From Candidatus Marinacidobacterales bacterium (GTDB taxonomy: Bacteria > Acidobacteriota > Vicinamibacteria > Marinacidobacterales > DATDRI01), in assembly GCA_965197825.1 (NCBI GenBank), contig CBDANW010000002.1:213271-277270 (forward strand): 64,000 bases of DNA, written 5' to 3'. The translations under genes and the position numbers were made by a program. Shown here in pieces: positions 6,975 to 64,000 of the stretch. Every line of letters begins with the position of its first letter. The first letter of the stretch is position 1. The notes under the pieces are model-generated. The model worked only from the letters and a program-made list of their open reading frames with translations, was not told the DNA's origin and made no database searches.

Positions 6975-8267
<1,293 letters not shown>

Positions 8268-8271
<4 letters not shown>

Positions 8272-22770: not shown

Positions 22771-22908
22771 ACCTCGAGCAGCGACGCCTTCCTTAAGTCG
22801 ATAAGGCAGCTACTGTCACTGACGATAAGCCGCATCGGCACCCTGCAGGCCCTTCAAGTCTGCCTCCACCTCCGGCATGGGAATCCGCAGAAGCTCCGTG
22901 CCCTTGCC

Positions 22909-24336: not shown

Positions 24337-24843
24337 GGTTAGATGCTTGAGGAACTCGTCGATCGTGAACCCGCTGTCGGTGTCCACCGTCTTGATCTCT
24401 AGCGTGAGGAACTTCTGTTCCTCGAAAGACTTGCCACCGCGGGAGTTGTAGAGGACGTACCGGTTGCCGTCAGATAGAACGCCCCATTGAACCCCCATCG
24501 CGCCGAGGTAGGAGGTGAGCTGCTTGACGTGGTTCTTGTGGCCGATGTTGCTACCGAGTCGCTTGGCCTCCAAGAGCAGGATGGGTTTCGCAGACTTTTT
24601 TTTCGAGCTGTAAAACGCGTAGTCGACCGGCTCGTTGAATTCGGGCACGCGTGGCTCACTCTTGATGGAGTCAAAATCGGTAAAGTCCCACTGGAGCGCG
24701 CGAAACAACGGGTTGATGAGACCCTGTCGGGTGTCGGTCTCGGTGAGCTTTGCGTCGCCCACCTCGGTCTTGATGATTTGTTTCTTGAGCTTGAGGATGG
24801 TGTCCTTAAGTACCGCGTAGTCTATAGCCTTCCCCCTCCCGGC
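24337..24843 (-). pseudogene. HsdR-N-terminal-like PD-(D/E)xK nuclease-domain gene, copy 1: start codon mutated (ATA), 3'-truncated by the IS481-like TIR
   Basis: ...AIDYAVLKDTILKLKKQII...VDYAFYSSKKKSAKPILLLEAKRLGSNIGHKNHVKQLTSYLGAMGVQWGVLSDGNRYVLYN... . The longer copy is at 62403-63964. Confidence 0.55.
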
Positions 24844-25291: not shown

Positions 25292-25465
25292 TGTGCCTTC
25301 TATTTATTCATCCGCGCCGACCCGAACCTGATCGGTCTCCGATCTGCCGGGACTATGCCTGCATGATTTCGTCGTTTGTTCGCGCTCGGCCCTGGGCACG
25401 GCCGCAAACACAGACTCTAAGTTGCTGATTTATGGGCTATTTCAAAAGGGCTGAGTTTTGGCACA
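25292..25465. repeat. Composite repeat: family C plus solo TIR end
   Basis: The same family C to TIR-end junction recurs at 59455-59636. Confidence 0.7.
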
Positions 25466-25507
25466 GGACGGGCACGCACAAGGCCCGACTTGCAGAGGCG
25501 TCCAGAC

Positions 25508-35159: not shown

Positions 35160-36303
35160 TCACAGCGTTGCAACGAGCACTCGCTGTTTCTCCCAATCGT
35201 CGGGAAGCGGATGATGCAGGAGGTAGCTCGAGGTCAGCCCAACGGGCTGGCGACCTTCGACAATGGCGCGGACAATGTCGGGGGCCAGGAAGGCATAGCG
35301 GATTGCCTTGCGCACGCGGTCCGTTGGGATGGCGTCTTCGGTGGCAATCTGCTCATAGGTTTTGCCTGCTTTGATCCGGTCGAGCCAGAAGAGGGCGTTG
35401 GCGATATTGCGCAGGAGTGTGCGGTCGACGGATTTCGTACGGATTTCGTGGGGTTGCCCAGAACGAGCTTGGTCTCGACGCCGCGTCGGCGCAAGCGGAA
35501 CGGCGCGTGGATACGGAGTGCATCCTCGCGAATGCGGTCGGACCCCATAGAGAGGCAAGCAGCGAACGCATTGCGGTCGAGGAGGATAGACACAGAGCCG
35601 GGGCTGATATCGACCCGCCGGATGAGGCGGAGCAGGCGGGCTACCGAGGCACTGTCATTATTACTACCGGAACACAGCCCGTCTAAAAAGCGACGCACCG
35701 AGGCGAGCTCTTGCATCGTCGGGGTGTGGGTCAGCGAGGCCGAGAAGGTCGTGGTATCCACATGCTGTCGGATGAGATGCACGACGGTCTGTTCCAGCAT
35801 CGGGGCGGGCAGGCGCCAGCCGGAGAGGTCCTTTTGGCCACTGTGCTGGATGAGGCGCCGGGAGACGTAGTAGCGGAGCCGTTGCCCGTTTTTCTTTTTG
35901 GTGTGGCTCGGCGTCAGCCGGTCCCCGGTCTCGTCGAAGAGCTTGCCTGCCAGTGGGGAAGGGGCGGCGCGGCCCTTCGTCGTGCGTCTCCTTGGTTTGG
36001 CAGCCCCTGCCTGCAGCTGCGCCTGGACCGCGTCCCAGAGCTCCGGAGCAATGATCGATGGATGCTGGCCCTCGTAGACACGCCTCTGGTGCCGGATGCG
36101 GCCGGCGTAGAGAGGATTGGTCAGCAGGCAGTGGAGGTGTCCGCGACGGAACGGCAGCCCTCCTGTCCGGGTTCCATCCGCGGCGAAGCGTTGCTTGGTG
36201 CGCAGTCCCAGATGGTCCGCCTCGGCCTTCACCTGCCGGAGCGTTCCGTGCTTCCGGTACAGCGCATAGAGCGTCCGACCGTGACCGTGAGCTACCCTCA
36301 GAA
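35160..36303 (-). pseudogene. Large serine recombinase, C-terminal two-thirds (recombinase domain, Cys-less zinc-ribbon-like region, C-terminal HTH-like tail). Frameshift near 35545. N-terminus cut by the IS at 36304.
   Basis: ...LYALYRKHGTLRQVKAEADHLGLRTKQRFAADGTRTGGLPFRRGHLHCLLTNPLYAGRIRHQRRVYEGQHPSIIAPELWDAVQAQL... . Tail continues in another frame (35160-35558). Confidence 0.65.
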
Positions 36304-37646
36304 GGTGTGGAAATAAAGTAAAGGCGGAGTAACCTTCCGCGTCACGAAACACGGCCTGAAGGGGCCAACGGAAGGAGACACCGCCATGAAGGAAAAGACC
36401 ACAGGACGACGGAGCTCGTCAAGGGTGGCTTGGGAGTCGCTGGAGAAGTGGGCGAGGCTTGAGATCCAGGATTGGGTGCAGGAGCTGATGGTAGCCGAAG
36501 TCACGGAGCTTCTCGGGCGTGAGAAATCGGAGAGACGGAAGCCCGTGGACACAACGGCGGGCTATCGAAATGGATACGGTAAGCCTCGGAAGCTGACGAT
36601 GAGCGTGGGCACAGTGACGGTTCGCCGGCCGAGAGTACGGAACGTGGAGGAGAGGTTCGAAAGTCGAGTGCTTCCGCTGTTCAAGCGTCGGAGCGAAACG
36701 GTGAGCGAGTTGATTCCGGAGCTGTACCTGCATGGACTAGCTCACGGAGATTTCGATCTGGCGCTCCGCGGGCTTCTAGGGGAGGACGCTCCACTTTCTC
36801 CCAGCACGGTGTCGCGGCTGAAACAGAAATGGCAGGGAGAGTACGAGCAGTGGCTAGCTAGCCCACTGGAAGAACTCGAGCTCGTGTACCTGTGGGTAGA
36901 TGGCGTGTACGTGAAGGCCGGCCTTGAGAAGGACAAGGCGGCGGTGCTAGTTGCGGTTGGTGGCCTGTCCGACGGGACGAAAATCGTCCTGACGCTGGAG
37001 GCCGGGCATCGAGAATCCGAAGCGTCATGGTCGTCGCTGCTACGGAGACTGAAGAAGCGCGGTCTGAGATGTCCCCGTTTGGTGATCGGTGACGGTCATC
37101 TCGGCATCTGGGCCGCGACCCGAAACGTATTTCCAGAAGCTGAGGAACAGCGGTGCTGGAACCACCGAATCCTCAACGTACTGGACCGGATTCCGAAAAG
37201 GGACCAGGCGCAGGCCAAGCCGCTGTTGACGGCGATCCCCTACGCCACCAGCCTGCAGGAGTGCGAGACGAAGAAGGCCAAGTTCCAGGATTGGTGCTTG
37301 CGCAAGGGTCTTCCGGGGGCCGCGCACGTGCTCGACGAGGACTGGGAGCGGATGGTCAGCTTCTATTCCTTTCCCAAGCCTCACTGGCAACACCTTCGCA
37401 CGAGCAACGTCGTGGAGTCACCGTTCGCTGCACTGAGATTGAGAACGGATGCGGCCAAAAGGTTCAAGAAAGTCGAGTCCGCCACTGCGACAATCTTCAA
37501 ACTGCTTCTGGTTGCGGAGAAGAATTTTCGCCGGCTCAACGCACCGGAGCTGATGCGAGAGGTTCACCTGGGCGTTCGATTTGAAGATGGAGACAGGGTA
37601 ACGGAGTCGTCGAAGGTTGCTGCTGCCTGAACTTTTTTACACACCT
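36304..37646 (+). mobile_element. IS256-family insertion sequence, type 3
   Basis: IRs GGTGTGGAAATAAAGTAAAGG and GGTGTGTAAAAAAGTTCAGG. Inserted into the serine recombinase gene. Confidence 0.75.
36386..37630 (+). CDS. IS256-family transposase (type 3)
   Basis: 414 aa. ...YLWVDGVYVKAG...VLVAVG...RCWNHRILNVLD... Confidence 0.8.
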   Translation: MKEKTTGRRSSSRVAWESLEKWARLEIQDWVQELMVAEVTELLGREKSERRKPVDTTAGYRNGYGKPRKLTMSVGTVTVRRPRVRNVEERFESRVLPLFKRRSETVSELIPELYLHGLAHGDFDLALRGLLGEDAPLSPSTVSRLKQKWQGEYEQWLASPLEELELVYLWVDGVYVKAGLEKDKAAVLVAVGGLSDGTKIVLTLEAGHRESEASWSSLLRRLKKRGLRCPRLVIGDGHLGIWAATRNVFPEAEEQRCWNHRILNVLDRIPKRDQAQAKPLLTAIPYATSLQECETKKAKFQDWCLRKGLPGAAHVLDEDWERMVSFYSFPKPHWQHLRTSNVVESPFAALRLRTDAAKRFKKVESATATIFKLLLVAEKNFRRLNAPELMREVHLGVRFEDGDRVTESSKVAAA

Positions 37647-39099: not shown

Positions 39100-39398
39100 T
39101 TGAGGCGAGCCTGCGCCGGTCGTCGTCCGAGAGCCTGAGACGCTTGCCCCGAAGCCCGGCTCGGAGCACACGGTTCTCCTCTTACTGGTAGTCGATCACA
39201 TCTTGCTGCTGGCGGTTGACCCAGCCAGCTAGAACGAGCAGTAGGAATTGCACGTGGTACGTCATCATGGATCTGAAGATAACACCCTCGGGCCAGACGA
39301 TTGTAAAGCCCACGGCCCTTGGCCCGGTCGCAAACACAGACACTAAGCTGCTGATTTATGGCCTATTTCAAAAGGGCTGAGTTTTGGCACAGGACGCG
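39100..39398 (-). mobile_element. IS481-like 5' fragment (left TIR plus first about 60 codons)
   Basis: Matches 22909-23210 in reverse complement. Confidence 0.75.
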
Positions 39399-39404
39399 CA
39401 AGCT

Positions 39405-40506
39405 CGACGAAGCGCTGTCGCGCGGGTTCCAGCGCCGCGTATAGCCTGTCCTGGCTCGCCTTGGGGTCGAAGTACACCCGCCCGAAGGTCTCGACATCGT
39501 CGGACATGAACACGCCGAAGTTGAGCAGTCTGCCCTGAATCTCGTAGAGGAGGTTGGGGTCGGTCTCCTCCGAGAGCAAAGTGGTCTCGTAGTACGGCTC
39601 GAAAGCCTTCCTGATCTCCTCGGCTTCGTTGGCGAAGTCGAGCACCATCGTGCCCTTCTTGCCGAGATGCGTGCGGTTCAGGCGGGACAGCGTCTGGACC
39701 GCGTTCACACCGCCGAGCTTCTTGTCCACGTACATCGTGTGGAGCAAGGGCTGGTCGAAACCGGTCTGGAACTTGTTGGCAACCACCAGGAAGCGGTACT
39801 CGGGCTTGTCGAACTCGGCTGCCGTCTGCCGCTCGCCGATGACCCGCTCTTGATCGGCCGAGTTCATGCTGGACTCCGTGTAGGATTCGCCACGGTCCTT
39901 CACCGTTCCAGAGAAGGCGACGAGCGCTTTCCAGGGATGGCCCTTCTCGGCCAAGTAGCGATCCAGGGCGAGCTTGGTGTGTACCGCGTGCAGGCGCGAG
40001 CGCGTCACAATCATCGCCTTGGCCCGCCCGGCGATCTTGCCCGCGACCTGTGCCGCGAAATGCTCTACACAGATAGCGATCTTCTCGCGGATCGCATGCC
40101 GGTGCAGCTCGACGAAGGACTTGAGCAGATACTCCGCCTGTCGCTTGTCGTACCGTGGATCGTCCTCGATCTTCTTCAGCAGACGCCAGTACGCCTTGTA
40201 GGTCGTGTAGTTCGCGAGCACATCGAGGATGAACCCTTCTTTGATCGCCTGTCGCATGCTGTAGCGGTGGAAGGGCTCGAACTTTCCGTCCGGTCGCTTC
40301 CGGCCGAAGAGCTCAAGGGTCTTGGGCTTCGGGGTCGCCGTAAAGGCGAACGTCGAGAGGTTCGGCATCCGTCCACGACTTCGAATTTCCTTGAGGATCC
40401 GGTTCTCGACCTCCTCTTCCGGGGTCTCGGCACCCGCTTCCTCTTTTTCGGCGTCTTCACTCGGGGCAGGACGGACATGCGTCAAAACACGGGATTTCTC
40501 CAACAC
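39405..40506 (-). pseudogene. hsdR: Type I restriction enzyme R subunit (HsdR) internal/C-terminal fragment, truncated at both ends
   Basis: ...STFAFTATPKPKTLELFG... (helicase motif) and ...FLVVANKFQTGFDQPLLHTMYVDKKLGGVNAVQTLSRLNRTH... . 3' end runs into a TIR. Confidence 0.6.
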
Positions 40507-42004: not shown

Positions 42005-42261
42005 GGCGTCCTCCTCTCTTCTAAGCAAGACCGCGGTCACACTCCGACTAGGCGGAATGCAAGTCGAGGTCGTTGTCAGCCCGCCAGGTGGGGAGCATGG
42101 GCTGTTAGAACCAAACGCCGGAAAAACGGTAAGAAGCGAAGATGGCAGTCTGACAAGAAGGTCCGGCGCGCGCTGCTGGAAACCCTTCTCGACTGAGGAA
42201 TGTTCATTATAACATGATCTCTCTAAGTATTCAAGAACAAGCGCTTAACCGGGACGGTGAT

Positions 42262-43648
42262 GTCTTAAGATTCCTGTCAAAGAAAAACGATGTATGGTCC
42301 CCAAGCTCAAACCCGTCCCCGTCATGGGGACAGAAAAGGAGAACCATACATCATGGGAAAGGTACTACCGAGTCAGCGATTGCTCAAGCAGTTCGAGGAA
42401 CAACTGGTATTTGGGGAGATGAATCTCTCGGAGATCGTCCGGTCGGGAGCTCAGATGATGCTTCAATATGCGTTGGAGCGCGAGGTGACGGAGGCGTTGG
42501 GTCGAAACTACTATGAGAACGCTCCGGCAACGACGAAGGAGAAGGGACGACGCAACGGGTATGAGTCGCATCGGGTCCTCACGGGCGAGGGAGCGGTGAC
42601 GGTGCAAGTGCCGCGGGTACGAGAAACAGAGAAGGTGTTTCAGTCAAAGATTCTCGACGCCTACGTGAGCCGGACCGAGAAACTCGATGAACTGATCGCG
42701 CGGATGTACGTCCACGGGATGTCGACGCGTGACATTGAGGCGACGTTCGCGGACGTGCTGAGCGGCACGGGTGTCTCGAAGTCGGTGGTGAGCCGGGTCA
42801 CACGGTGTCTGTCGGAGGATTTCGAGGCGTTTCGAAAACGGGATCTCTCGAACGAGAAGCTGTTGTATCTCGAGCTCGACGGCACGTACCTGCGCTACCA
42901 CCAAGGAGCGGAGAGAAAAGAGCCCATCCTCGTTGCGACCGGCTATCGCGCTGATGGGACGCGAGTTCTTCTTCATATCGGTGTCGGCAACCGAGAATCC
43001 TACGAGAACTGGAAGGGGTTCTTGCAGGAGATAGTGGCCCGAGGAATGAGGGAGCCGTTGCTCATCGTGACGGACGGGAATCCTGGAGTGCTCAAAGCGA
43101 TCGCAGAGGTCTTCCCTCGAAGCCTCAAGCAACGTTGCCAGAAGCACCGCCTCGAGAACATCCTGGGCAAGGCTCCGAAGGAAGTGCGCGACGAACTCAA
43201 GGCGGCCATCCTTGAGTCGTTCCATGCGAACAGCTACGAGCAAGGGCTGAAGAAGGGTCGGGAGGTGATCGCTCGGTACCGTCAACGATTCCCGAGCGCG
43301 ATGAAGTGCATGGAAGAGACCCTCGAAGCGTGTCTTCAGGCGCTACGCCTTCCTGCGGCGCATCACAAAAGGCTTCGCACGTCGAATCTACTTGAGCGCA
43401 CGTTCGGAGAGCACAAACGTCGCACAAAGGTCATTCCTCACTTCTTCACCGAGGAGGCCGCGATGAAACTCTCGTTCGCTGTGCTCTTGGCCGTCGCAAA
43501 CAAATGGCGCGGCGTGAGGATGGATGTCTTCGCCGCTAGGAAAGTCGAGGAGCTTCGCAACGAGCTTCTCCCGCAAGGCACGTCGGAGGAATCAGCAGCT
43601 TAACCGAGCGCGGGGAACCGTACGGAGATTTGACAGGAAAATTAAGAC
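42262..43648 (+). mobile_element. IS256-family insertion sequence, copy C, with perfect 8-bp target-site duplication ACCGGGAC
   Basis: Left flank ...cttaACCGGGAC|ggtgatg. Right flank cttgacc|ACCGGGACacg. Confidence 0.9.
42350..43603 (+). CDS. IS256-family transposase
   Basis: Identical to the 28119 copy. Confidence 0.9.
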   Translation: MMGKVLPSQRLLKQFEEQLVFGEMNLSEIVRSGAQMMLQYALEREVTEALGRNYYENAPATTKEKGRRNGYESHRVLTGEGAVTVQVPRVRETEKVFQSKILDAYVSRTEKLDELIARMYVHGMSTRDIEATFADVLSGTGVSKSVVSRVTRCLSEDFEAFRKRDLSNEKLLYLELDGTYLRYHQGAERKEPILVATGYRADGTRVLLHIGVGNRESYENWKGFLQEIVARGMREPLLIVTDGNPGVLKAIAEVFPRSLKQRCQKHRLENILGKAPKEVRDELKAAILESFHANSYEQGLKKGREVIARYRQRFPSAMKCMEETLEACLQALRLPAAHHKRLRTSNLLERTFGEHKRRTKVIPHFFTEEAAMKLSFAVLLAVANKWRGVRMDVFAARKVEELRNELLPQGTSEESAA

Positions 43649-43820
43649 TTGACCACCGGGACACGACTCCCCTCGCTCGGATTGTGCTATTCTCGGCGAC
43701 CCGGTGAGTCTCTCCCCTTGGAGAGAACCTGCTGAAGACAACCAAATTGTACCCTATCACACCTACACATCTGACACGGCAAATTTGTTGCCGCAGAGCA
43801 AGCGACGACTCGAGTCTGTT

Positions 43821-44871: not shown

Positions 44872-46332
44872 GTGAGCAGCACTCGCCAAAAGGAGACGGG
44901 CGCGTATTTCACACCGCCAGATGCCGTCTCCGCGCTCGTGAAGTGGGTTACTCGACGAGCCTCAGATCGGCTGCTTGACCCATCGTGCGGCGACGGTCGC
45001 TTCATCGCTCTCCATCGTCGGAGCGTGGGTGTGGAGCAGGAAGCCGAATCGTCCCAGAACGCCCGAGAGAGGGCACCAGGGGCCCTGATTCACGAAGGCG
45101 ACTTTTTTATCTGGGCCGCGAGGACGACGGAACGCTTCGAGTGCGCTGCCGGTAATCCTCCTTTCATCCGGTATCAGCGATTCTCCGGCAACAACCGCCG
45201 GACAGCACTGAGCCTTTGCTCGCGGATAGGAGTTGATTTTTCGGCGCTGACATCTTCGTGGGCACCGTTTCTGGCTGCTACTGCTTCTCTCTTGAAGCCG
45301 GGAGGACGAATGGCGTTTGTCGTCCCGGCAGAGATCGGGCATGCGACGTATTCCTCGCCCCTGCTTGAGTATCTTGCCCGTAACTTCGGTAGGGTTCACC
45401 TAACCGCCATTCGAGAGAAGCTGTTCACCGATCTGTCCGAAGATGTGTGGTTACTCTTTGCTGATGACTTTGGCTCATCAACCAATGAGTTTGAGTTGTC
45501 TTGTCGAACTCGATTCGAGTATTCGGCAGAACCGCCGCTACCGACGCGGCGAGTCGGCTTGACCGAGTGGATCAGCTGGAATCGACGATTGCGACCATTC
45601 CTCCTGCCGCGTGGCGTGCGTGAACTGTACGAGAATGCCAAGAATGCTAATTCCAGTTTCAGACTTGGCGAAATCACGAAGGTCGGAATCGGTTACGTTA
45701 CCGGTGCGAACGACTTTTTTCATCTTCGTCCCTCCGACGTGGCTGCAGCGGGCATTCCCGACCGTTGGTTGCACACGGCAGTGAGGAATGGACGCGTTCT
45801 GACAACGGAAACGGTGAATCAACACACAGTTCGCAAATGGCTTAATGATGATGATCCCGTCCTGTTGCTACGGTTGCAGTCGGGGCAGAGTCTGCCGAGA
45901 GCCGTTTGCGACTACCTTGCAACACCCGCCGGAATCCGCGCCAGCAAGACCTACAAATGCCGCAATAGAAACCCGTGGTTTGTGGTGCCGGATGTGAAGG
46001 TGCCGCATGCGTTCCTCTCGGTCATGAGCGGCAATAAACCCTCACTCGCTTGGAACAGAGCCGGTTGTGTGGCGACCAATTCGGTACACACAGTTCAACT
46101 AACTGGAGCGGCGTCACCGCGGGCGATCCGAGATGCATGGAACGGCCCGTTGACGAGCTTGAGTTGTGAGATCGAAGGGCACCCGTTGGGTGGAGGGATG
46201 CTCAAGCTCGAACCACGCGAGGCTTCTCGATTGGTCTTGTCAAATAAGAAGTGTTGGCCCTCGGGGCAGAGTAGCCTGATCCAGGAGGGAGTCGAGACGC
46301 TCCGGCGGTGGAGGCATTCCGGTGCCCAGTAG
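44872..46332 (+). CDS. Gamma-class N6-adenine DNA methyltransferase (Eco57I/TaqI-like MTase domain)
   Basis: GAYFTPPDAVSALV, LDPSCGDGRFI (motif I), GNPPF (motif IV). 486 aa. GTG start. Confidence 0.7.
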   Translation: MSSTRQKETGAYFTPPDAVSALVKWVTRRASDRLLDPSCGDGRFIALHRRSVGVEQEAESSQNARERAPGALIHEGDFFIWAARTTERFECAAGNPPFIRYQRFSGNNRRTALSLCSRIGVDFSALTSSWAPFLAATASLLKPGGRMAFVVPAEIGHATYSSPLLEYLARNFGRVHLTAIREKLFTDLSEDVWLLFADDFGSSTNEFELSCRTRFEYSAEPPLPTRRVGLTEWISWNRRLRPFLLPRGVRELYENAKNANSSFRLGEITKVGIGYVTGANDFFHLRPSDVAAAGIPDRWLHTAVRNGRVLTTETVNQHTVRKWLNDDDPVLLLRLQSGQSLPRAVCDYLATPAGIRASKTYKCRNRNPWFVVPDVKVPHAFLSVMSGNKPSLAWNRAGCVATNSVHTVQLTGAASPRAIRDAWNGPLTSLSCEIEGHPLGGGMLKLEPREASRLVLSNKKCWPSGQSSLIQEGVETLRRWRHSGAQ

Positions 46333-47536: not shown

Positions 47537-48404
47537 GTGGGTCACTCAAATGAGAATACGCAATTTTGGCTCGCGTTGCTGACTTACCCGGACGACGCCC
47601 AACAACGAACACGATACTGGAACGGTTACCTTGCGTGGCAGTTGCCGGAAGACTTCCGGTACGAAATCCGTAACGTTGGTAATCCTCCTTTCAATCGGTT
47701 CTTTCAGAACGAACATTTGCAGTTAAAGAAAGAGGAGAAGTGTGCACTCGATGCACTTGCCGATAAGTTCGGCGGACATCCTCCATTCCCGAACAGGTCC
47801 AACGGAGTACCGGCCCGATACATGGATTTCTCCGGCCAAACGTTCAACCACGACGTATGTTTTGCTGGCCGGATTTTAGTCAGAGCTAGCTTTAAGGACG
47901 CCACGCTCGACTGTCTCTCCGACTTCCGCAATGTAACATTTGTAGATACAGCAGACTTTGAGCGAGCAACGTTTAGGCATTGCACTCGTTTCAATAGCGT
48001 CACATTCGAAAAGTCCGTCTATTTCAATGCTGCGACATTCAAGGAAACCACCGTGTTCGACGGATCCGTATTCAGGGATGCAGCGTATTTTGCTGGATCG
48101 TATTTCCTACCCATCCCCGGCATACAAAGACACCGGGCCGGTGCGGTGGGTTTTCGGAATACTGTCTTCACACGCGATGCAAGTTTTGAGGGAACCCAAT
48201 TAGACGTGCCAAGCAATTTCGAAGGTGCAAAATTCCAAGGAAATGCCAACTTCAAGACTTGTCTATTCCGAAAGATAGCAGATTTTCATAGAGCAGTATT
48301 CGAACGTCCTTCCGACTTCTCTGCCGCACGGTTCGAGCAGATTGCAAATTTCAATAACGCTAGGTTCAAATCTACTACATATTTCTGCGATTCATTATTT
48401 CTGA
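47537..48404 (+). pseudogene. Pentapeptide-repeat protein gene (low GC), 3'-truncated and fused in frame to an IS256 transposase 3' fragment
   Basis: Runs of 5-residue repeats (ATFRH CTRFN SVTFE KSVYF NAATF KETTV FDGSV FRDAA YFAGS). ORF continues into ILGKAPKEV... of IS256. Confidence 0.55.
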
Positions 48405-48888
48405 ACATCCTGGGCAAGGCTCCGAAGGAAGTGCGCGACGAACTCAAGGCGGCCATCCTTGAGTCGTTCCATGCGAACAGCTACGAGCAAGGGCTGAAGA
48501 AGGGTCGGGAGGTGATCGCTCGGTACCGTCAACGATTCCCGAGCGCGATGAAGTGCATGGAAGAGACCTTCGAAGCGTGTCTTCAGGCGCTACGCCTTCC
48601 TGCGGCGCATCACAAAAGGCTTCGCACGTCGAATCTACTTGAGCGCACGTTCGGAGAGCACAAACGTCGCACAAAGGTCATTCCTCACTTCTTCACCGAG
48701 GAGGCCGCGATGAAACTCTCGTTCGCTGTGCTCTTGGCCGTCGCAAACAAATGGCGCGGCGTGAGGATGGATGTCTTCGCCGCTAGGAAAGTCGAGGAGC
48801 TTCGCAACGAGCTTCTCCCGCAAGGCACGTCGGAGGAATCAGCAGCTTAACCGAGCGCGGGGAACCGTACGGAGATTTGACAGGAAAA
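48405..48888 (+). mobile_element. IS256 3' fragment (last about 150 codons plus right IR)
   Basis: Matches 43120-43648. Confidence 0.85.
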
Positions 48889-49002
48889 TTAAGACTTGAC
48901 CGAGAAATAGGCAGGGTCCGCACAAGCGCGTGCGTTACGAGTGGCATCCAGCCCGGTGACCCAATTCTGGCACCGTGTTTTTCCAGAACAGGAGAGGAAA
49001 TC

Positions 49003-50850: not shown

Positions 50851-51114
50851 ACCCGATGTCGTCGTTCGTGCGGCCGGCGGGCACCACCAGCGCGTGGCCG
50901 TCATCGTCGCGCGCATCCTGGTGCCGCTCGATGTAATCAGCGACGCGCGACTCTTCTTATGCTGTCTTCTCGAGAAACAGCCCCGTCATCCAGCGCGACA
51001 TGATACCTTATTAAATCGTTGAATTCCCTGCACACAAATGCAGTTGCAGCAGATCGAGCAATTGACACACCTAGCGTTTTCGCTCTGCCCACCGACAAGA
51101 GAGTAACCACCACC

Positions 51115-52494
51115 GTGATGGCGAAGAATATGACCTCAGACGAACTCCGCGCCAAGCTTGAGGAGGTCGACCGAGATCAACTCATGTCCCTCATCACTCA
51201 GCTTGCTGATGAAGATGACGGAATCCGGGACCGCGCGGAAGCTCTCGCTCTTCGCGGAGAACCCACGGCTCATGCCGACGCACTGAAGCAGCGACTTGAG
51301 CGCTGGAAACGGGCTAGACACTTCATTTCCTACAGCGAGAGCACCGCCTTCGCCCGGCAGTTGGACATCTGGCTCGATGAGCTGGAGGAAGAGCTACTCG
51401 CGGTAAATCCCGAGGCGACCTGGGAACTTGCTGACGCCTTTCTTCGCTCGGATCGCCAGATCTTCGACCGCGCCGATGACTCGAACGGAGCAATCGGCGA
51501 TGCCTATCGTCGGTCTTGCGGCCTCTGGCTGCGGGCTGCCGCAAAACTTGGGGCTTCCCCGGCCTGGGTGGACCGTCTCCACAGCTTGCACTCTGACAAT
51601 GACTACGGCGTTCGAGATGCGTTGCTGGACGGTGCGGGGACGCTGCTTTCGGAGCTTGAGCTACGACGGTTGGCGAAAATCTACGAACAAGAGTTCCGGA
51701 CAGAGGCAAAGCGAACGACTGGAGAACCCTCGCGCTCGCTCGCACCTGCTGCAGCGATGGGACAGGTGGCACTCGCAGCAGGTGATGCGGAACTCTACGA
51801 GCGCTCAGTTAGACTTCACTCGCCGCAGCCCAATAGTCTCCAGGCTCAGGAGATCGCGAAACAGTATGTTCGCTTCGGCCCCGTCGACAAGGCCCTGCCG
51901 TGGCTCACCGGTGCCGCGACGGTCGGATCCGACGTCGACCGACTTGGTCTGCTCGCGGAAGCGTACGGGAAGCTGGGCAACCGCTCTCGCCTCCTTGAAG
52001 TGCGGTGCCAACTTTGGGAGAACACGCTCTCCGCTGAGGCTCTTCGTGAGTACATCGAGTTACTTCCGCCGTCCGAACGCTATGAGGCACGCCGACACGC
52101 CATCGAGAAAGCGTCCCACAGTGACGACGTCGTCTTGGGAACCACACTGCTGCTGAGCCTCGGCGAGTCCGCGAACGCCTCGGCTGTGGCGTGGAGGCTG
52201 CGCGACAGGCTGGTCGACGCGTACTACACCCATCTCATTGATCTGGCGAAACAGTTCGAGGCGGCAGAGTGTGCACTAGGCGCCGTGCTCTGCCTGCGGG
52301 CGTTGATTGATCAAATTCTCGCGGCGGGGCAAACCAAGACCTATCGCTATGCCAAGCGATACCTTGATCGCCTTGTCGCACTGGATGGCTGCGTGAGGGA
52401 CTACCGTGAGGTACCCGACCACCGAGGGTATCTGGAGCACTTGCGAGAAACGCATAGCCGCAAACGGAGCTTCTGGAAGCTCGTCGACGGGTGA
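51115..52494 (+). CDS. Hypothetical alpha-helical protein (about 460 aa); alternative start at 51019
   Basis: Long uninterrupted ORF with plausible codon usage, Ala/Leu/Glu/Arg-rich. No motif recognised. Confidence 0.5.
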   Translation: MMAKNMTSDELRAKLEEVDRDQLMSLITQLADEDDGIRDRAEALALRGEPTAHADALKQRLERWKRARHFISYSESTAFARQLDIWLDELEEELLAVNPEATWELADAFLRSDRQIFDRADDSNGAIGDAYRRSCGLWLRAAAKLGASPAWVDRLHSLHSDNDYGVRDALLDGAGTLLSELELRRLAKIYEQEFRTEAKRTTGEPSRSLAPAAAMGQVALAAGDAELYERSVRLHSPQPNSLQAQEIAKQYVRFGPVDKALPWLTGAATVGSDVDRLGLLAEAYGKLGNRSRLLEVRCQLWENTLSAEALREYIELLPPSERYEARRHAIEKASHSDDVVLGTTLLLSLGESANASAVAWRLRDRLVDAYYTHLIDLAKQFEAAECALGAVLCLRALIDQILAAGQTKTYRYAKRYLDRLVALDGCVRDYREVPDHRGYLEHLRETHSRKRSFWKLVDG

Positions 52495-52659: not shown

Positions 52660-53005
52660 CGTGAAGAAAATCCGTTGCGCCATCTATACGCGAAAGAGCG
52701 CTGAAGAGGGTCTCGAACAGGATTTCAACTCCCTCGATGCGCAGCGAGAAGCCTGCGCCGCGTATGTCGCGAGCCAGAAAGCGGAGGGCTGGGTGCTGCT
52801 GCCAACTGTCTACGAGGACGGAGGGATCTCGGGAGGAACCCTGGAGCGCCCGGGCCTACAGCGCTTGCTCGCCGACATCGATGCCGGTCTCGTCGAGCAG
52901 ATCGTGGTCTACAAGGTCGACCGGCTGACCCGTTCCCTCTCCGACTTTGCAAAGCTCGTCGAGCGGCTCGAGGCGGCCGGCGCGGTTTTCGTCACGCTCA
53001 CCCCG
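52660..53005 (+). pseudogene. Serine recombinase N-terminal catalytic (resolvase) domain fragment, 3'-truncated by a TIR at 53003
   Basis: VKKIRCAIYTRKSAEEGLEQDFNSLDAQREACAAYV...IVVYKVDRLTRSLSDFAKLVERLEAAGAVFVTLT. Confidence 0.6.
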
Positions 53006-53222
53006 TCCTGTGCCAAAACTCGGCCCTTTTGAAATAGGCCATAAATCAGCAACTTAGTGTCTGTGTTTGCGACCGGGCCAAGGGCCGTGGGCTTTACAAT
53101 CGTCTTGGGCGGGCGGGTCGTCACCATGCAGATGACCACCTAGTCGAGAGCGAATATCGAAGCATGTTCCTGAAGCTGTTTCCACGCTACGCCGGTCGAG
53201 CCCGCCGAGGGGCTACCGTCGC
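53003..53222 (-). mobile_element. IS481-like 3' terminal fragment (right TIR plus about 110 bp)
   Basis: Matches the reverse complement of 24115-24336. Confidence 0.75.
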
Positions 53223-53514
53223 CGGCGACCTATTACGAGCAGAAAGCGCGAGAGAAGGACCCAAGCCGCCAGCCAGCGAGAGCGAAGCGCGACGTCCAAC
53301 TCTGCGGCGAGATTCGTCGTGTACGGCAAGAGAACTTTGACGTGTATGGCGTGCGCAAGGTCTGGCGTCAGCTTCGCCGTGAGGGTTGCGACGTGGCTCG
53401 ATGCACGGTGGCCCGTCTGATGCGTGAAATGGGCCTCCAGGGCGCGGTTCGTGGACGTCGATTCAAGACGACGAAGCCGGATTCGAGCGGCGCTCGCCCG
53501 ATGGACCTCCCATG
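53222..53514 (+). pseudogene. IS3-family transposase OrfAB internal fragment
   Basis: ...IRRVRQENFDVYGVRKVWRQLRREGCDVARCTVARLMREMGLQGAVRGRRFKTTKPD... Confidence 0.6.
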
Positions 53515-55318: not shown

Positions 55319-56717
55319 GGTGATGTCTTAAGATTCCTGTCAAAGAAAAACGATGTATGGTCCCCAAGCTCAAACCCGTCCCCGTCATGGGGACAGAAAA
55401 GGAGAACCATACATCATGGGAAAGGTACTACCGAGTCAGCGATTGCTCAAGCAGTTCGAGGAACAACTGGTATTTGGGGAGATGAATCTCTCGGAGATCG
55501 TCCGGTCGGGAGCTCAGATGATGCTTCAATATGCGTTGGAGCGCGAGGTGACGGAGGCGTTGGGTCGAAACTACTATGAGAACGCTCCGGCAACGACGAA
55601 GGAGAAGGGACGACGCAACGGGTATGAGTCGCATCGGGTCCTCACGGGCGAGGGAGCGGTAACGGTGCAAGTGCCGCGGGTACGAGAAACAGAGAAGGTG
55701 TTTCAGTCAAAGATTCTCGACGCCTACGTGAGCCGGACCGAGAAACTCGATGAACTGATCGCGCGGATGTACGTCCACGGGATGTCGACGCGTGACATTG
55801 AGGCGACGTTCGCGGACGTGCTGAGCGGCACGGGTGTCTCGAAGTCGGTGGTGAGCCGGGTCACACGGTGTCTGTCGGAGGATTTCGAGGCGTTTCGAAA
55901 ACGGGATCTCTCGAACGAGAAGCTGTTGTATCTCGAGCTCGACGGCACGTACCTGCGCTACCACCAAGGAGCGGAGAGGAAAGAGCCCATCCTCGTTGCG
56001 ACCGGCTATCGCGCTGATGGGACGCGAGTTCTTCTTCATATCGGTGTCGGCAACCGAGAATCCTACGAGAACTGGAAGGGGTTTTTGCAGGAGATGGTGG
56101 CCCGAGGAATGAGGGAGCCGTTGCTCATCGTGACGGACGGGAATCCTGGAGTGCTCAAAGCGATCGCAGAGGTCTTCCCTCGAAGCCTCAAGCAACGTTG
56201 CCAGAAGCACCGCCTCGAGAACATCCTGGGCAAGGCTCCGAAGGAAGTGCGCGACGAACTCAAGGCGGCCATCCTTGAGTCGTTCCATGCGAACAGCTAC
56301 GAGCAAGGGCTGAAGAAGGGTCGGGAGGTGATCGCTCGGTACCGTCAACGATTCCCGAGCGCGATGAAGTGCATGGAAGAGACCTTCGAAGCGTGTCTTC
56401 AGGCGCTACGCCTTCCTGCGGCGCATCACAAAAGGCTTCGCACGTCGAATCTACTTGAGCGCACGTTCGGAGAGCACAAACGTCGCACAAAGGTCATTCC
56501 TCACTTCTTCACCGAGGAGGCCGCGATGAAACTCTCGTTCGCTGTGCTCTTGGCCGTCGCAAACAAATGGCGCGGCGTGAGGATGGATGTCTTCGCCGCT
56601 AGGAAAGTCGAGGAGCTTCGCAACGAGCTTCTCCCGCAAGGCACGTCGGAGGAATCAGCAGCTTAACCGAGCGCGGGGAACCGTACGGAGATTTGACAGG
56701 AAAATTAAGACTTGACC
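55319..56717 (+). mobile_element. IS256-family insertion sequence, copy D, nested inside the IS30 transposase gene
   Basis: Flanks ACCGCGAT / ACCGCGAgat (approximate 8-bp duplication). Confidence 0.9.
55413..56666 (+). CDS. IS256-family transposase
   Basis: Identical to the 4702 copy. Confidence 0.9.
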   Translation: MMGKVLPSQRLLKQFEEQLVFGEMNLSEIVRSGAQMMLQYALEREVTEALGRNYYENAPATTKEKGRRNGYESHRVLTGEGAVTVQVPRVRETEKVFQSKILDAYVSRTEKLDELIARMYVHGMSTRDIEATFADVLSGTGVSKSVVSRVTRCLSEDFEAFRKRDLSNEKLLYLELDGTYLRYHQGAERKEPILVATGYRADGTRVLLHIGVGNRESYENWKGFLQEMVARGMREPLLIVTDGNPGVLKAIAEVFPRSLKQRCQKHRLENILGKAPKEVRDELKAAILESFHANSYEQGLKKGREVIARYRQRFPSAMKCMEETFEACLQALRLPAAHHKRLRTSNLLERTFGEHKRRTKVIPHFFTEEAAMKLSFAVLLAVANKWRGVRMDVFAARKVEELRNELLPQGTSEESAA

Positions 56718-58671: not shown

Positions 58672-58875
58672 CGGTAGGGTCGAGGGCTGGCGCGGTGCTC
58701 CGTAGGCGCGGCCTATCTGTTTCTCCCCGTTTCCTGTGGTAGTGCCTCACTAGCCGCACCGTAAGTCCGTTTCCAGCCCCCGCCACATCGCACGCAGCGT
58801 GCGGCTTTCCCGCACTACGCGGCGCTCCTGCACACTTCCCGCGAAGGGTTATGTGACCTATCGAGCCGGGGCGTC
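58672..58875 (-). repeat. 200-bp GNRA-hairpin repeat, second copy
   Basis: Reverse complement of 6694-6894 with about 4 mismatches. Confidence 0.6.
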
Positions 58876-59454: not shown

Positions 59455-59636
59455 AGCTGTACCTTCTATTTATTCATCCGCGCGCCCCGAACCTGATCGG
59501 TCTCCGATCTGCCGGGACTATGCCTGCATGATTTCGTCGTTTGTTCGCGCTCGGCCCTGGGCACGGCCGCAAACACAGACTCTAAGTTGCTGATTTATGG
59601 GCTATTTCAAAAGGGCTGAGTTTTGGCACAGGACGG
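59455..59636. repeat. Composite repeat: family C plus solo TIR end
   Basis: About 95% identical to 25292-25465. Confidence 0.7.
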
Positions 59637-59639
59637 GCC

Positions 59640-59900
59640 GGAGCAAAGTGGAGGCGAGGTGCGAGCGCCACTTCTCGCGTAAGGACTTGAAGCCTCCCCA
59701 TCGGTTGTGGGGGGAAAGGTTGACGGAGAAGATATCTCCGATTTCACGGTAGAAGTCGGCGAGGCGACTCTGAGGTCTGCAGAGTACGCCGACTTCGAGT
59801 TCGGGAAGTTGTTGAAGGCGGTGAGCGAGCAGCCTACAGACGACGGATTTTCCCGTGCCCGGGTCTCCTGTAATCAAAGCGAAACCGCCCTCGCGCACTA
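59640..59900 (-). pseudogene. AAA_22/ExeA-like P-loop ATPase fragment (transposition-helper-like)
   Basis: ...GFALITGDPGTGKSVVCRLLAHRLQQLPELEVGVLCRPQSRLADFYREIG... . Truncated by a TIR. Confidence 0.45.
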
Positions 59901-59929
59901 GGTTTTCAAGCCTGAAGGCGAACGCGTCG

Positions 59930-60437
59930 ACGCCAAAACACGCGCCGCCTGTGCCTGATGAACATCTTCTTGCACAACATCGGTGAGATTGAGGGCGGCG
60001 CTCCCATATCGCCGAATGACTCGCTTGTGGCCGATGCTGGCAAGCGCTTTGAACGTTCGCGGCCGATCTTGAGCTCGATCCGCGAATGGGCACTGACCCA
60101 GCGGGGACTGCCGCGAAGCGACTTCGGCAAGGCGGTCCGATACATGCTGGAGCGCTGGGCGAAGCTGACGCTGTTCGTCGAAAACCCGCTCATGTACCCC
60201 GACAATAACGCGGCCGAACGTGCTCTGCGGGGACCCGTCGTTGGGCGCAAGAATCACTACGGCAGTCGCTCGAAACGCGGAACCGAAGTCGCCACGCTCT
60301 TCTACACCTTGTGCGAGACCGCAAAGCTGCGCAACGTTGAGCCGAGAGCCTACCTGATCCAGGCAGCCTACGCCGCCATCGAGCATCCTGGAACGATCAT
60401 ACTCCCCGACGTGCTACGCGACGACTCCGCCGCGTAG
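59930..60437 (+). pseudogene. IS66-family transposase C-terminal fragment
   Basis: ...MYPDNNAAERALRGPVVGRKNHYGSRSKRGTEVATLFYTLCETAKLRNVEPRAYL... Confidence 0.6.
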
Positions 60438-60502: not shown

Positions 60503-60820
60503 TCAGGCGTCGCTTGTGAGCTTCTTCTTCAGTGGGACGACGGCGTCTTGGCAAGCTTTCGCTACTCGAAACTTGACCACCGTCTTTTTCGGGATTCGAA
60601 TCTGTTCGCCGGTCCGGGGGTTGCGTCCCTTGCGAGCCTTTCGTTTCGCTTTCACGAGTTTTCCGATTCCGGGAATGACGAACTGGCCCGTTCGCTTCGT
60701 TTCCTTTACCGCGAGATCGGCAATCGATTTGAACCATGCAGCGGCCTGCTTCTTCGGAACCTGCATCGTTTCCGACATCTGAGCCACGATTTGGGTTTGG
60801 GTCATGGGTTTTTTCGCCAT
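60503..60820 (-). CDS. HU/IHF-family nucleoid-associated DNA-binding protein
   Basis: MAKKPMTQTQIVAQMSE...GQFVIPGIGKLVKAKRKARKGRNPRTGEQIRIPKKTVVKFRVAKA. AAAAGGAGA ribosome-binding site. Confidence 0.75.
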   Translation of the reverse strand: MAKKPMTQTQIVAQMSETMQVPKKQAAAWFKSIADLAVKETKRTGQFVIPGIGKLVKAKRKARKGRNPRTGEQIRIPKKTVVKFRVAKACQDAVVPLKKKLTSDA

Positions 60821-60989: not shown

Positions 60990-61353
60990 GATTCCTACGG
61001 ATGTAGCGATGGCGACCCATAGACAGGCAAGCAGCGAACGCATTGCGGTCGAGGAGGATAGACATAGAGCCTGGGCTGATATCGACCCGCCGGATGAGAC
61101 GGAGCAGGGGGGCTGCCGAGGCACTATCATTATTACTGCCGGAACACAGCCCGTCTAAAAAGCGACGCACCGAGGCGAGCTCTTGCATCGTTGGAGCGTG
61201 GGTCAGCGAGGCCGGGAAGGTCGGGGCATCCACATGCTGTCGGATGAGATGCACGACGGTCTGTTCCAGCATCGGGGCGGGCAGCCGCCAGCCGGAGAGG
61301 TCCTTTTGGCCACTGTGCTGGATGAGGCGCCGGGAGACGTAGTAGCGGAGCCG
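60990..61353 (-). pseudogene. Large serine recombinase internal fragment, copy 2
   Basis: ...LRYYVSRRLIQHSGQKDLSGWRLPAPMLEQTVVHLIRQHVD...SILLDRNAFAACLSMG. Duplicate of 35540-35900. Confidence 0.6.
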
Positions 61354-61412
61354 TAGGCCGCGCCTACGGAGCACCGCGCCAGCCCTCGACCCTACCGGGC
61401 GCCAGGGGCGTG

Positions 61413-62267
61413 CTATTGCATCCACCAGTCTTTGTTCAGCTCCGCGATTTGCACGAACATCTCCGCTTTGTCCTCAAGCATATCGGATGCTATTTGGAAG
61501 TGAACGCGTTGCCTTCTCTCGGTGTATTGAAAGCCTTTGTCGCTGAGTAATTCTAGAATCTCCTCGCGCTTGCCCCCGTAATGAAAATGGACGAGCACAT
61601 TGTTTCCGCTTCGGTTCTCGAGCAGCAACTGGTTGTAGCCGCTTGAAGTGATCACAACAGAGAACTTGTTGAATCCTAGCTTTGGATTTGAATAAACCGT
61701 CTGCGTAAGGCTCAATAGATACCTTGCACTGGCCAATGTTTTTTGAGATTTCTTTACCCAATAAGCCTCATCGTAGATCTCACCATCTCCTGACGAGGCG
61801 TTGTCGTCTGGCTCCTCGTACACATCTATGATTTTGGTGAAATGAAGGCTTTTGCCGTGCGGGCTTTCCACGACGTTGACCTGAATGGCGATCAACGGCA
61901 CCGCACCGCTGAGAATTTGAATGACGTTGAAGAATCGCTTTGTAATACGCTCTGCAACCAAGACTGCATAGTGTTGTCGTTGCGGCCATTTTCGCTTCAT
62001 GAGGTCCCAATACTCGATGGTTCTCACGATGTGGTCTGGATCAGTTTCTCCGAGCATCGTTTCGACTTCGTACATCGAATCATCGACGGGGTTCTTGAGC
62101 AGAATATCGAGTCGCCCACCAGAGCTTACGGCGCGCTCCTTCGTCACGCCTTCAAGTTCGCCGAGCCCAAGACAAGAAGGGCTCTCCCATATTTGGGCTT
62201 GCAGCCAAGCCTCATCGAGCCCAACGGAATGAAGCGTCACGGTTTTCGAAAAGGGTATCGCGTCCAT
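61413..62267 (-). CDS. Hypothetical protein with PD-(D/E)xK/NucS-like N-terminal signature (285 aa), low GC
   Basis: ...GGRLDILLKNPVDDSMYEVETMLGE... . About 48% GC versus about 62% background. Immediately downstream of the HsdR-N-like repeat gene. Confidence 0.45.
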   Translation of the reverse strand: MDAIPFSKTVTLHSVGLDEAWLQAQIWESPSCLGLGELEGVTKERAVSSGGRLDILLKNPVDDSMYEVETMLGETDPDHIVRTIEYWDLMKRKWPQRQHYAVLVAERITKRFFNVIQILSGAVPLIAIQVNVVESPHGKSLHFTKIIDVYEEPDDNASSGDGEIYDEAYWVKKSQKTLASARYLLSLTQTVYSNPKLGFNKFSVVITSSGYNQLLLENRSGNNVLVHFHYGGKREEILELLSDKGFQYTERRQRVHFQIASDMLEDKAEMFVQIAELNKDWWMQ

Positions 62268-62402
62268 GTTTTTTCCTAGTGCTTGCACGGGAGTTTTTCT
62301 AGTTTCGCAAGGCTGTTTATACGCGCTCTCGGGTTTCAACTGTTCATTCCCACTTCCAGGCATTACGCGGCCATTCGTCTGGTCCACAGATGGCTGGTCG
62401 CG

Positions 62403-63964
62403 CTAGGCCTTGTTGGGCTTCGCGTCATAGACCAGCGCGAGCTTCGCTTTCCCGACTTGCCGGCGATACTCACTTCGGAGAGCACCGATCCTCTGCCACT
62501 CGCCGCTTGCGTCGCGGCAGTACCAGTAGTCCCACCCGTTCCCCGATTTGCTGGTCACGGCAGAGAAGGCCGTGCTCGGGCTTTCGTGGCACTCGTTGTT
62601 TACCTCCAGTTGTCCGTTGCTCTTAATGCGGCCCCGGACGACTTCGCCCTTGAACGATAGACGCCACTGGTCACCCTCACGGACGAGTCCGGCCTTCAAG
62701 AGATCCCCGATAGTAACGCGCTGGCCGTGCACACTGACCGGTCCCCCCTTGGCCCGATTGCCGCCTTCCGGCCCGCTGTCCTGGACAGCATCGTCGGTGT
62801 GAATTGCCTTGGCCCCGAGGTCCACCGGGGTTCGGACCAGCGCGAGCTTCGCTTTTCCGACTTGCCGGCGATACTCACTTCGGAGAGCATCGATCCTCTG
62901 CCATTCGCTCCCAGCGTCGCGGTAGTGCCAGTAGTACCACCCGTTGCCCGGCTTGCTGGTCACGGCAGAGAAGGCTTTGCTCGGGTTACCGTGACCCTTA
63001 TTATTAACCTCCAGCTGTCCGTTTCTCTCAATGCGGCCCCAGACGACTTCGCCCTTGAGCGATAGACGCCACTGGTCACCCTCACGACGAGTCCGGTCTT
63101 CAAAAGATCCCCGATAGTAACGCGCTTGCCGTGCGCACTGACGGGCCCTCCCTTGGCCCGATTGCCGCTTTCCAGCACACTGTCCTGGACCGCATCGTCG
63201 GTGTGAATTGCCTCGGCCTCAAGATCCACCGGGATCCGGCCGGCTTCGTCTGAGATAGATTCCACATAAGCCTTGATGTGCTTCATGCTGATCTTGATCC
63301 CATCAGGCAGCCCAACTCGTTCTTCCTTGAACTCTCGCTGAATTGCCTTACACAACGTGTCGAAGGGAGTGCTGAGCAGGCTATCGAGAGCCAGTTTGAT
63401 CCGGCTGTGAATCATGTGCTCTTCGTACGCGTGCTGGATCTCTTCGTTCTCCAGACACTCGCGTGACAGCAGGCTGGTTAGATGCTTGAGGAACTCGTCC
63501 ATCGTGAACCCGCTGTCGGTGTCCACCGTCTTGATCTCTAGCGTGAGGAACTTCTGTTCCTAGAAAGACTTGCCACTGCGGGAGTTGTAGAGGACGTACC
63601 GGTTGCCGTCAGATAGAACGCCCCATTGAACCCCCATCGCGCCGAGGTAGGAGGTGAGCTGCTTGACGTGGTTCTTGTGGCCGATGTTGCTACTGAGTCG
63701 CTTGGCCTCCAAGAGCAGGATGGGTTTCGCAGACTTTTTTTTCGAGCTGTAAAACGCGTAGTCGACCGGCTCGTTGAATTCGGGCACGCGTGGCTCACTC
63801 TTGATGGAGTCAAAATCGGTAAAGTCCCACTGGAGCGCGCGAAACAACGGGTTGATGAGACCCTGTCGGGTGTCGGTCTCGGTGAGCTTTGCGTCGCCCG
63901 CCTCGGTCTTGATGATTTGTTTCTTGAGCTTGAGGATGGTGTCCTTAAGTACCGCGTAGTCCAT
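62403..63964 (-). pseudogene. HsdR-N-terminal-like PD-(D/E)xK domain protein with two tandem about 95-aa Trp-rich repeats, copy 2: one amber stop (63560) and one 1-nt deletion frameshift (about 63050)
   Basis: MDYAVLKDTILKLKK...KPILLLEAKRL... then VDLEAEAIHTDDAVQDS...GKRVTIGDLLKTGLV... and VDLGAKAIHTDDAVQDS...GNGWDYWYCRDASGEWQRIGALRSEYRRQVGKAKLALV in tandem. Confidence 0.55.
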
Positions 63965-63986
63965 AGCCTTCCCCGTCCTGTGCCGG

Positions 63987-64000
63987 TGATGTCTTAAGAT
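63987..64000 (+). mobile_element. Start of a sixth IS256 copy (left IR GGTGATGTCTTAAGAT), cut by the window edge
   Basis: Matches the IR at 42258 and 55319. Inserted into a TIR fragment (ccccgtcctgtgcc|ggtgatg). Confidence 0.7.

Follow-up and report, generated by a model that had tools for sequence, protein, structure and literature searches.

The RAMA domain (PF18755) goes back to Iyer, Zhang and Aravind, who defined it in 2016 from proteins in which it is fused to an adenine methyltransferase or to a nuclease. These nucleases have several folds, the restriction-endonuclease fold among them, and RAMA was predicted to discriminate N6-methyladenine (m6A) (PMC4738411). Fusions of RAMA with nucleases have been named as candidate type IV enzymes awaiting study (PMC11037411). 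Here we study two genes at the end of a stretch of 64,000 nucleotides from Candidatus Marinacidobacterales bacterium (contig CBDANW010000002.1), in the following called the window, one of which belongs to these fusions and the other of which resembles the NucS/EndoMS nucleases. Gene 1 (62403-63964, minus strand) is a pseudogene, derived from a solitary gene that encodes an HsdR-N-type nuclease with two RAMA domains. Gene 2 (61413-62267, minus strand) is an intact and solitary gene for a protein of 284 amino acids (aa), in which a NucS-like nuclease domain (about aa 1-150) is followed by a domain like the C-terminal domain of T4 MotA (about aa 165-284). An earlier note on this DNA, made from the letters alone, had taken both genes for a defence-type cassette present in two decayed copies. 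The sequence features given in that note turned out to be mostly accurate, but the cassette interpretation was over-read. We consider it likely that two independent solitary DNA-nuclease genes stand here side by side, in a stretch saturated with insertion sequences (ISs) and rich in defence and mobile genes, and that they do not form a functional pair.

Genes 1 and 2 share a strand and are separated by 135 nt. This adjacency is known only from the window and from two metagenomic contigs (L001 and L002), and because both contigs are 99.3% identical to window positions 63697-60374, the three sequences represent a single event. Searching the neighbourhoods of relatives with tblastn, we found gene 2 in none of the 26 gene-1 loci; in about 14 of these more than 1 kb of sequence is available downstream. 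Conversely, only one of 80 gene-2 loci, taken from species-representative genomes of Planctomycetota, Acidobacteriota, Proteobacteria, Bacteroidota, Verrucomicrobiota and Methanosaeta, has a gene-1-like sequence within 8 kb, and this is a weak HSDR_N-like match of 28% identity. In the 26 loci intact homologues of gene 1 were never seen beside a member of the gene-2 family, so the two genes are not a conserved defence module, as had been supposed.

A related locus (L010) carries an intact gene 1 with two RAMA domains, 92% identical in DNA and 93% in protein. It is homologous to window positions 63978-62355 only; the homology stops 48 nt after the stop codon of gene 1, and in place of gene 2 a 229-aa DUF4145 protein is encoded (L010 positions 7671-8360). 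What lies downstream of gene 1 varies by locus, be it DUF4145, IS fragments, DUF87 or nothing recognisable, and there may be a variable slot for insertions directly behind gene 1, into which gene 2 would have been inserted separately. The content of guanine plus cytosine (GC) is 49.7% in gene 2, compared with 58.3% in gene 1 and 58.9% in the window. A steeper step of 48% versus 62% had been claimed before, which has to be corrected to about 50% versus 58-59%; the horizontal origin of gene 2 that had been drawn from it is supported. Because of the low GC content and the break in homology to L010 we conclude that gene 2 arrived separately from gene 1. The two genes are neighbours by accident of insertion. 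The main effect of this result is that a false lead is removed, as there is no new two-gene system at this locus.

Gene 1 is spread over three consecutive minus-strand open reading frames (ORFs) at 63964-63560, 63526-62960 and 62963-62403. The first two are in the same frame and are split by an amber codon (TAG, 63560-63562) at codon 135, where the second copy of the gene described below, L001 and L002 have GAG, and the third ORF can be joined only by a shift of one base. Putting GAG back at the amber codon and restoring a missing C results in a protein of 520 aa, which was used for the Pfam searches and in which an HsdR-N-type PD-(D/E)xK nuclease is followed by a helical linker and a pair of RAMA domains. 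The nuclease domain covers aa 29-134 (63563-63880, minus strand) and includes D68 and E86-A-K88. It is recognised by the Pfam profiles HSDR_N (28.4 bits, cut-off 25.1) and HSDR_N_2 (27.7 bits, cut-off 25.0), by a narrow margin in both cases, and the same domains are precomputed on homologues. The RAMA profile matches far above its cut-off (123.3 bits versus 35.2, E=5e-36) and in two stretches, the strongest of which is aa 408-504.

Both RAMA domains are part of a tandem duplication that was found by self-BLAST and by a repeat search. Unit 1 (62835-63239, minus strand) contains linker and RAMA 1, unit 2 (62430-62835, minus strand) linker and RAMA 2; the units are 88% identical in nucleotides. 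Two repeats had been noticed before, but the unit measures 405 bp, that is 135 aa, and not about 95 aa, the RAMA domain accounting for about 97 aa of each unit. The W-Y-W signature of the repeats, left without a name at that time, belongs to the known RAMA domain. Also the domain combination, said to match no system that could be named, is a described one, as nuclease-RAMA fusions were part of the original description (PMC4738411) and the family carries the NCBI name 'type I restriction enzyme HsdR N-terminal domain-containing protein'. The HsdR-N-like PD-(D/E)xK assignment of the N-terminus is confirmed by the Pfam matches, by the invariant D68 and E86-A-K88 and by a match to a known HsdR fold (see below).

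A second lesion of gene 1 is a deletion of one nucleotide at 63086, by which the spacing of the repeats falls from 405 to 404. Here one C of a CC pair is lost, which is present in L001, L002 and L010, and the frame is shifted inside the first RAMA repeat and not, as had been thought, between the repeats. In addition, the upstream region has been exchanged. The native upstream sequence, common to copy 2, L001, L002 and L010, is replaced in copy 1 from 14 nt before the ATG (63978-64000, minus strand) by an IS-end-like sequence ending GGCACAGGACGG; since the window ends there, the element itself is out of view. This displacement of the native upstream region with the promoter is an additional lesion. 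In a scan of positions 61200-64000 nothing promoter-like was found and a single terminator-like site was reported, fewer than shuffled sequence gives.

A database search yielded 180 relatives of gene 1, most of which are about 385 aa long and have a single RAMA domain behind HSDR_N and a helical region, and a metagenome scan added 17 loci, most of them short. The two-RAMA form is also known intact, from relatives of 520 aa (P0121 and P0122, 96% and 93% identical), and many close homologues in the database are truncated. The duplication of 405 bp appears to be confined to a narrow lineage. A protein of 623 aa (P0123) was considered as a three-RAMA form and was rejected, because what makes it longer is read-through at the N-terminus from an IS fragment. 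Across 40 aligned homologues E29, D31, D68, E86, A87, K88 and Q113 are invariant, as would be expected of an active PD-(D/E)xK nuclease. The AlphaFold2 model of P0121 has a pLDDT (predicted local distance difference test) of 76. By Foldseek it matches the C-terminal domain of the methyltransferase CcrM (6pbd, E=6e-5), the MPND RAMA-DNA complex (7ydw/7ydt, target template modelling (TM) score 0.72-0.75) and an HsdR fragment from Vibrio vulnificus (3h1t, E=6e-3, probability 1.0). Thus gene 1 is of a known kind: the nuclease-RAMA family of about 385 aa is common and already annotated. Gene 1 shares with its approximately 180 homologues the order HSDR_N, helical linker and RAMA, the invariant catalytic D...EAK residues and the RAMA fold known from CcrM and MPND, and it differs from most of them in carrying two RAMA domains and in being a pseudogene.

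The N-terminal PD-(D/E)xK domain is of the same type as that of the R subunits of type I restriction enzymes, e.g. of EcoR124I or the Vibrio vulnificus protein 3h1t, but the further organization is different. Pfam finds no superfamily 2 (SF2) translocase/helicase domain in the 520 aa, no HsdM or HsdS gene adjoins gene 1 or its homologues in the loci examined, and the proteins are 385-520 aa long compared with about 1,000 aa in HsdR. In PADLOC-DB v2 gene 1 has no full-length match. Partial matches concern the candidate PDC-S14, methyltransferases (via RAMA) and type IIG enzymes (via the nuclease). Gene 1 aligns with the RAMA domain at the C-terminus of PDC-S14 (positions 179-275 of the 280 in the profile, E=2e-27), but the N-terminal part of this candidate is not matched, and since the similarity is restricted to RAMA, gene 1 was not counted as a PDC-S14 protein.

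In the literature searched no biochemically characterised member of the gene-1 family was found. Because RAMA is the DNA-binding domain of CcrM and MPND and a predicted reader of N6-methyladenine, the intact protein may be a solitary, type-IV-like and possibly modification-sensing restriction nuclease, which would bind DNA through RAMA and cut it with the site formed by D68, E86 and K88; gene 1 itself is a dead copy of this widespread single-gene family. A solitary gene without cognate methyltransferase, a trait of type IV enzymes, is what we found in nine loci, none of which has a methyltransferase directly adjoining gene 1. In one locus (L011) an N6_N4_Mtase gene lies about 4.7 kb from gene 1, paired with its own BamHI/BglII-like gene. 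Homologues of gene 1 are otherwise found amid IS fragments or genes without relation to it, and some are in defence-like surroundings, one locus having a KAP NTPase together with DUF87 and patatin/CD-NTase genes and another having Mrr and TIR genes. Solitary proteins of this HsdR-N-nuclease-RAMA type are common and unstudied, and with them it could be tested directly whether adenine methylation is read by the RAMA domains of bacteria.

The family of gene 2 is uniform. The start of the gene agrees with the length of its 1,725 homologues, about 283 aa, none of which has a name, and a profile search among 1.84 billion cluster representatives identified 1,587 clusters at 50% identity, nearly all with a length of 280-300 aa, an end-to-end match and a uniform architecture. 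Gene 2 gave no significant match to Pfam, NCBIfam or PADLOC, and its profile retrieved noise only from the sequences of the Protein Data Bank. A Pfam scan of 50 homologues gave sub-threshold matches to NucS_C in three (best E 0.0024) and to DUF5655 in three; searches for literature on DUF5655, and likewise on PF18755, yielded nothing useful. The gene-2 family is unnamed, widespread and without an entry in any library searched, and it is the only part of the locus with some novelty. Genomes that carry a member of it belong to more than 560 species.

The 150 N-terminal residues of this family are strongly conserved, with E19, D54, E67, E69, H79, R82 and E85-Y-W-D being invariant. In the AlphaFold2 model (pLDDT 83) the protein consists of two domains. 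The core of the first one is built of a helix (19-28), three strands (39-43, 54-58, 65-74), a helix (77-93) and a further strand (99-107), thus having the order alpha-beta-beta-beta-alpha-beta. By this layout and by the acidic residues in helix 1, strand 2 and strand 3 the modelled protein fits the PD-(D/E)xK superfamily. Foldseek matches the N-terminal domain to NucS/EndoMS (5gke, E=7e-5, 109 columns; also 2vld) and to XisH. It superposes on the C-terminal nuclease domain of NucS, and like NucS it has an acidic residue in helix 1, an Asp in strand 2 and E-x-[K/E] in strand 3; it differs from NucS by the absence of the NucS N-terminal domain, by the order of domains and by an E for K at the third catalytic position. 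The NucS-like character that had been proposed for this protein, then taken as 285 aa long, therefore stands as a resemblance in fold of a 284-aa protein, and not as membership in the NucS_C sequence family.

The C-terminal domain (about aa 165-284, pLDDT above 90) matches the C-terminal domain of T4 MotA (1kaf and 5jlt) with E values from 8e-4 to about 1e-3 and target-normalised TM-scores of 0.5-0.6. Again this is a match of folds without sequence similarity, and MotA is a phage transcription factor whereas gene 2 would encode a bacterial solitary nuclease. From the likeness to MotA we infer that the domain binds DNA. A tblastn search with gene 2 matched nothing in phages; on plasmids it had 13 distant matches, each of them hypothetical or unannotated. 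Where the proteins of the window and of L001 differ, the window has the consensus residue of the family at three of five positions, and gene 2 looks functional. Most likely it encodes a stand-alone DNA endonuclease, often near defence genes, with E19, D54 and E67-x-E69 as its putative site.

The surroundings of gene 2 show little constancy. Clusters of neighbouring proteins recur in three of the 80 loci at most, and each Pfam family flanking gene 2 is present in two or fewer of the 121 immediate flanking proteins. Defence genes are included in these flanks (type I and type IIG restriction-modification, mad2/mad3 of MADS, AriA, and McrBC with a NERD-kinase), and others are housekeeping genes. 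A homologue with 70% identity (P0018, in L005-L007) has a HicAB toxin-antitoxin pair on one side and an McrB/McrC pair on the other. In the same locus McrB/McrC is followed by a gene for a NERD-protein-kinase of 1,421 aa, and a conserved ORF of 126 aa of unknown kind is found just upstream of P0018. These surroundings are a clear defence-island context.

Several observations weigh against the reading as two independent nuclease genes. Genes 1 and 2 are adjacent in three sequences, and the reach of many gene-1 loci is short on the side where gene 2 would be expected. The gene-2 protein of the window lacks a Pfam NucS_C match, and an hhalign comparison of the gene-2 profile with the NucS_C protein of another locus (L003) gave a probability of 0.3%, that is no relation, so that the similarity between gene 2 and NucS appears to be one at the level of the modelled fold only. 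The third catalytic position of gene 2 is E and not K; a precedent for E at this position is BamHI. As far as the putative function of gene 1 is concerned, a preference of RAMA for m6A lacks experimental confirmation (PMC11037411).

Nuclease activity, DNA target, modification dependence and defence role are for both genes what we infer from their domains and surroundings. On this basis gene 2 is a candidate solitary defence nuclease, a prediction of modest interest. A more far-reaching interpretation would see in the gene-2 family an undescribed, widely transferred single-gene endonuclease of about 285 aa, serving in defence or against mobile elements, with a NucS-like E-D-ExE core and a MotA-C-terminal-like double-wing DNA-binding domain, represented by about 1,600 clusters from Planctomycetota to Methanosaeta; the knock-outs of gene 1 would then result from autoimmunity caused by reading of m6A. 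We hold this interpretation only tentatively and regard it as rather doubtful. The family is sizeable and uniform and is sometimes found amid restriction, McrBC, MADS and PARIS genes, making it a cheap candidate for a phage-defence screen.

The window contains a second, partial copy of gene 1. Copy 2 (24337-24839, minus strand) comprises only the 5' 163 codons with native upstream sequence. BLAST aligns these 503 bp with the 5' end of gene 1 at 98.6% identity; they have ATA instead of ATG at the start codon (24823-24825) and GAG at the site of the copy-1 amber codon. After codon 163 the copy is cut at the terminal repeat of an IS located at 22906-24340 on the plus strand. According to Pfam and self-BLAST this element codes for a 356-aa transposase with rve_3, HTH_21 and HTH_32 domains and has inverted terminal repeats of about 100 nt. 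A single rve ORF with terminal repeats is the organization of IS481, though IS3-like elements are not told apart by it. What is duplicated is thus the first 503 bp, the 5' third of gene 1, with about 75 nt of native upstream sequence. By self-BLAST the rest of copy 2 is found nowhere else in the window, and gene 2 is single. A cassette in two decayed copies can therefore not be maintained, gene 2 being intact and present once. That the two copies of gene 1 were inactivated in different ways, by ATG to ATA in one and by an amber codon and a 1-nt deletion in the other, proved correct.

In L001 and L002 an IS256-type insertion, with a target duplication of 8 bp at 63690-63697, interrupts gene 1, and the 5' fragment bears further indels, but both contigs keep the intact bases at the two lesion sites of copy 1 (63560-63562 and 63086). 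A dead gene 1 stands beside an intact gene 2 in all three sequences, the window and both contigs, and the sequences point to at least three independent routes by which gene 1 was inactivated. We also considered gene 1 as a discrete mobile cassette, because the homology to L010 and to copy 2 begins and stops close to the gene. This idea was dropped because the homology of the native upstream sequence runs for about 75 nt and then ends at different ISs; IS-mediated rearrangement accounts for the boundaries.

Repeated inactivation could mean that gene 1 is counter-selected by autoimmunity, since a nuclease recognising m6A would become toxic to its own cell once the host has an N6-adenine methyltransferase. 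Such an explanation would agree with the at least three routes (amber codon, frameshift and promoter displacement in copy 1, start loss and IS truncation in copy 2, IS256-type insertion and indels in L001/L002), with the many truncated close homologues in the database, with a remnant of an Eco57I-like N6-methyltransferase within the window (44872-46332) and with the prediction of RAMA as a reader of m6A (PMC4738411). However, close relatives keep intact copies (P0121, P0122 and the 385-aa forms), many of the truncated entries come from long-read contigs of 3-5x coverage and may be errors, and reading of m6A by RAMA is unproven (PMC11037411). Neutral decay fits equally well in a window full of broken genes and IS copies. 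We therefore rate autoimmunity as unlikely, though as a reasonable minority hypothesis. The toxic or counter-selected module suggested in the earlier note is likewise possible but unneeded: because the window is saturated with IS copies and with fragments of other genes, the decay of gene 1 requires no special explanation.

Another explanation is that amber codon and 1-nt deletion of copy 1 are errors of sequencing or assembly and that the coding sequence is in fact intact. Both lesions are private to the window, with L001, L002 and L010 having the intact bases, and the deletion reduces a CC pair to a single C. Close relatives assembled from long reads at low coverage (P0145 and P0147) are frameshifted at other positions, and L001 has many small indels relative to L002. 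On the other hand the amber codon is a substitution and no indel, the consensus residues at three of the five positions where gene 2 differs from L001 speak for a good sequence quality of the window, and the replacement of the native promoter of copy 1 fits a dead gene. We consider an intact coding sequence quite improbable. Finally, a genuine two-gene defence module of a RAMA nuclease and a 284-aa nuclease working together, now being lost through toxicity, has in its favour the common strand, the short spacing, the nuclease-like nature of both proteins and the adjacency kept in L001 and L002, but is very hard to reconcile with the origin of these three sequences in one event, the DUF4145 gene following the intact gene 1 of L010, the counts of 0/26 and 1/80 loci, the survival of gene 2 beside a dead gene 1 and the break in GC content and homology between the genes.

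The preferred reading of two independent nuclease genes in a degraded stretch also agrees with the remaining content of the window, which looks like a decayed defence island. The IS at 22906-24340 is complete only there, more than 20 other sites holding a solo end or a fragment of it, and a terminal-repeat search found 19 occurrences of a 44-nt piece of its end in 64 kb, where none would be expected. Fragments are located for instance at 4285-4340, 6571-6624, 10341-10442, 25384-25473, 39105-39399, 53002-53230 and 59549-59638. A second element, 1.4 kb long and belonging to the IS256 family (Transposase_mut), is found in four full copies (4651-6050, 28068-29467, 42256-43654 and 55319-56717) and one partial copy (48403-48901). 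The copies are 99.6-99.8% identical, which points to a very recent expansion. Diverged Transposase_mut ORFs are present at 15004-16452 and 36386-37630. Among the defence genes an ORF at 39343-40506 (minus strand) matches domain 3 only of a type I R subunit, and the Eco57I-like methyltransferase remnant at 44872-46332 (plus strand) retains the C-terminal domain and a partial N6_Mtase motif. TonB-dependent receptor and serine recombinase genes are truncated, too.

Around gene 2 some further observations were made. Two genes downstream of it a 105-aa ORF is located at 60503-60820 (minus strand), whose counterpart in L001 and L002 contains the Pfam domain Bac_DNA_binding (HU/IHF-like), and the order of gene 1, gene 2 and HU-like gene is kept in both contigs. 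Also downstream, 345 bp at 61016-61360 are 95% identical to 35544-35888, which is part of a serine-recombinase ORF ('Recombinase'). An exact sequence of 44 nt occurs three times in the window, at 61354-61397, 6851-6894 and 58672-58715. About 730 bp of the window (59644-60374) are missing from L001 and L002 in spite of their 99.3% identity and are probably another insertion; this segment overlaps an unannotated ORF (59958-60437) and abuts the IS end at 59549-59638. Elsewhere in the window, a 491-aa ORF between IS fragments (51019-52494, plus strand) matches DUF6880 over its full length (E=1.5e-41).

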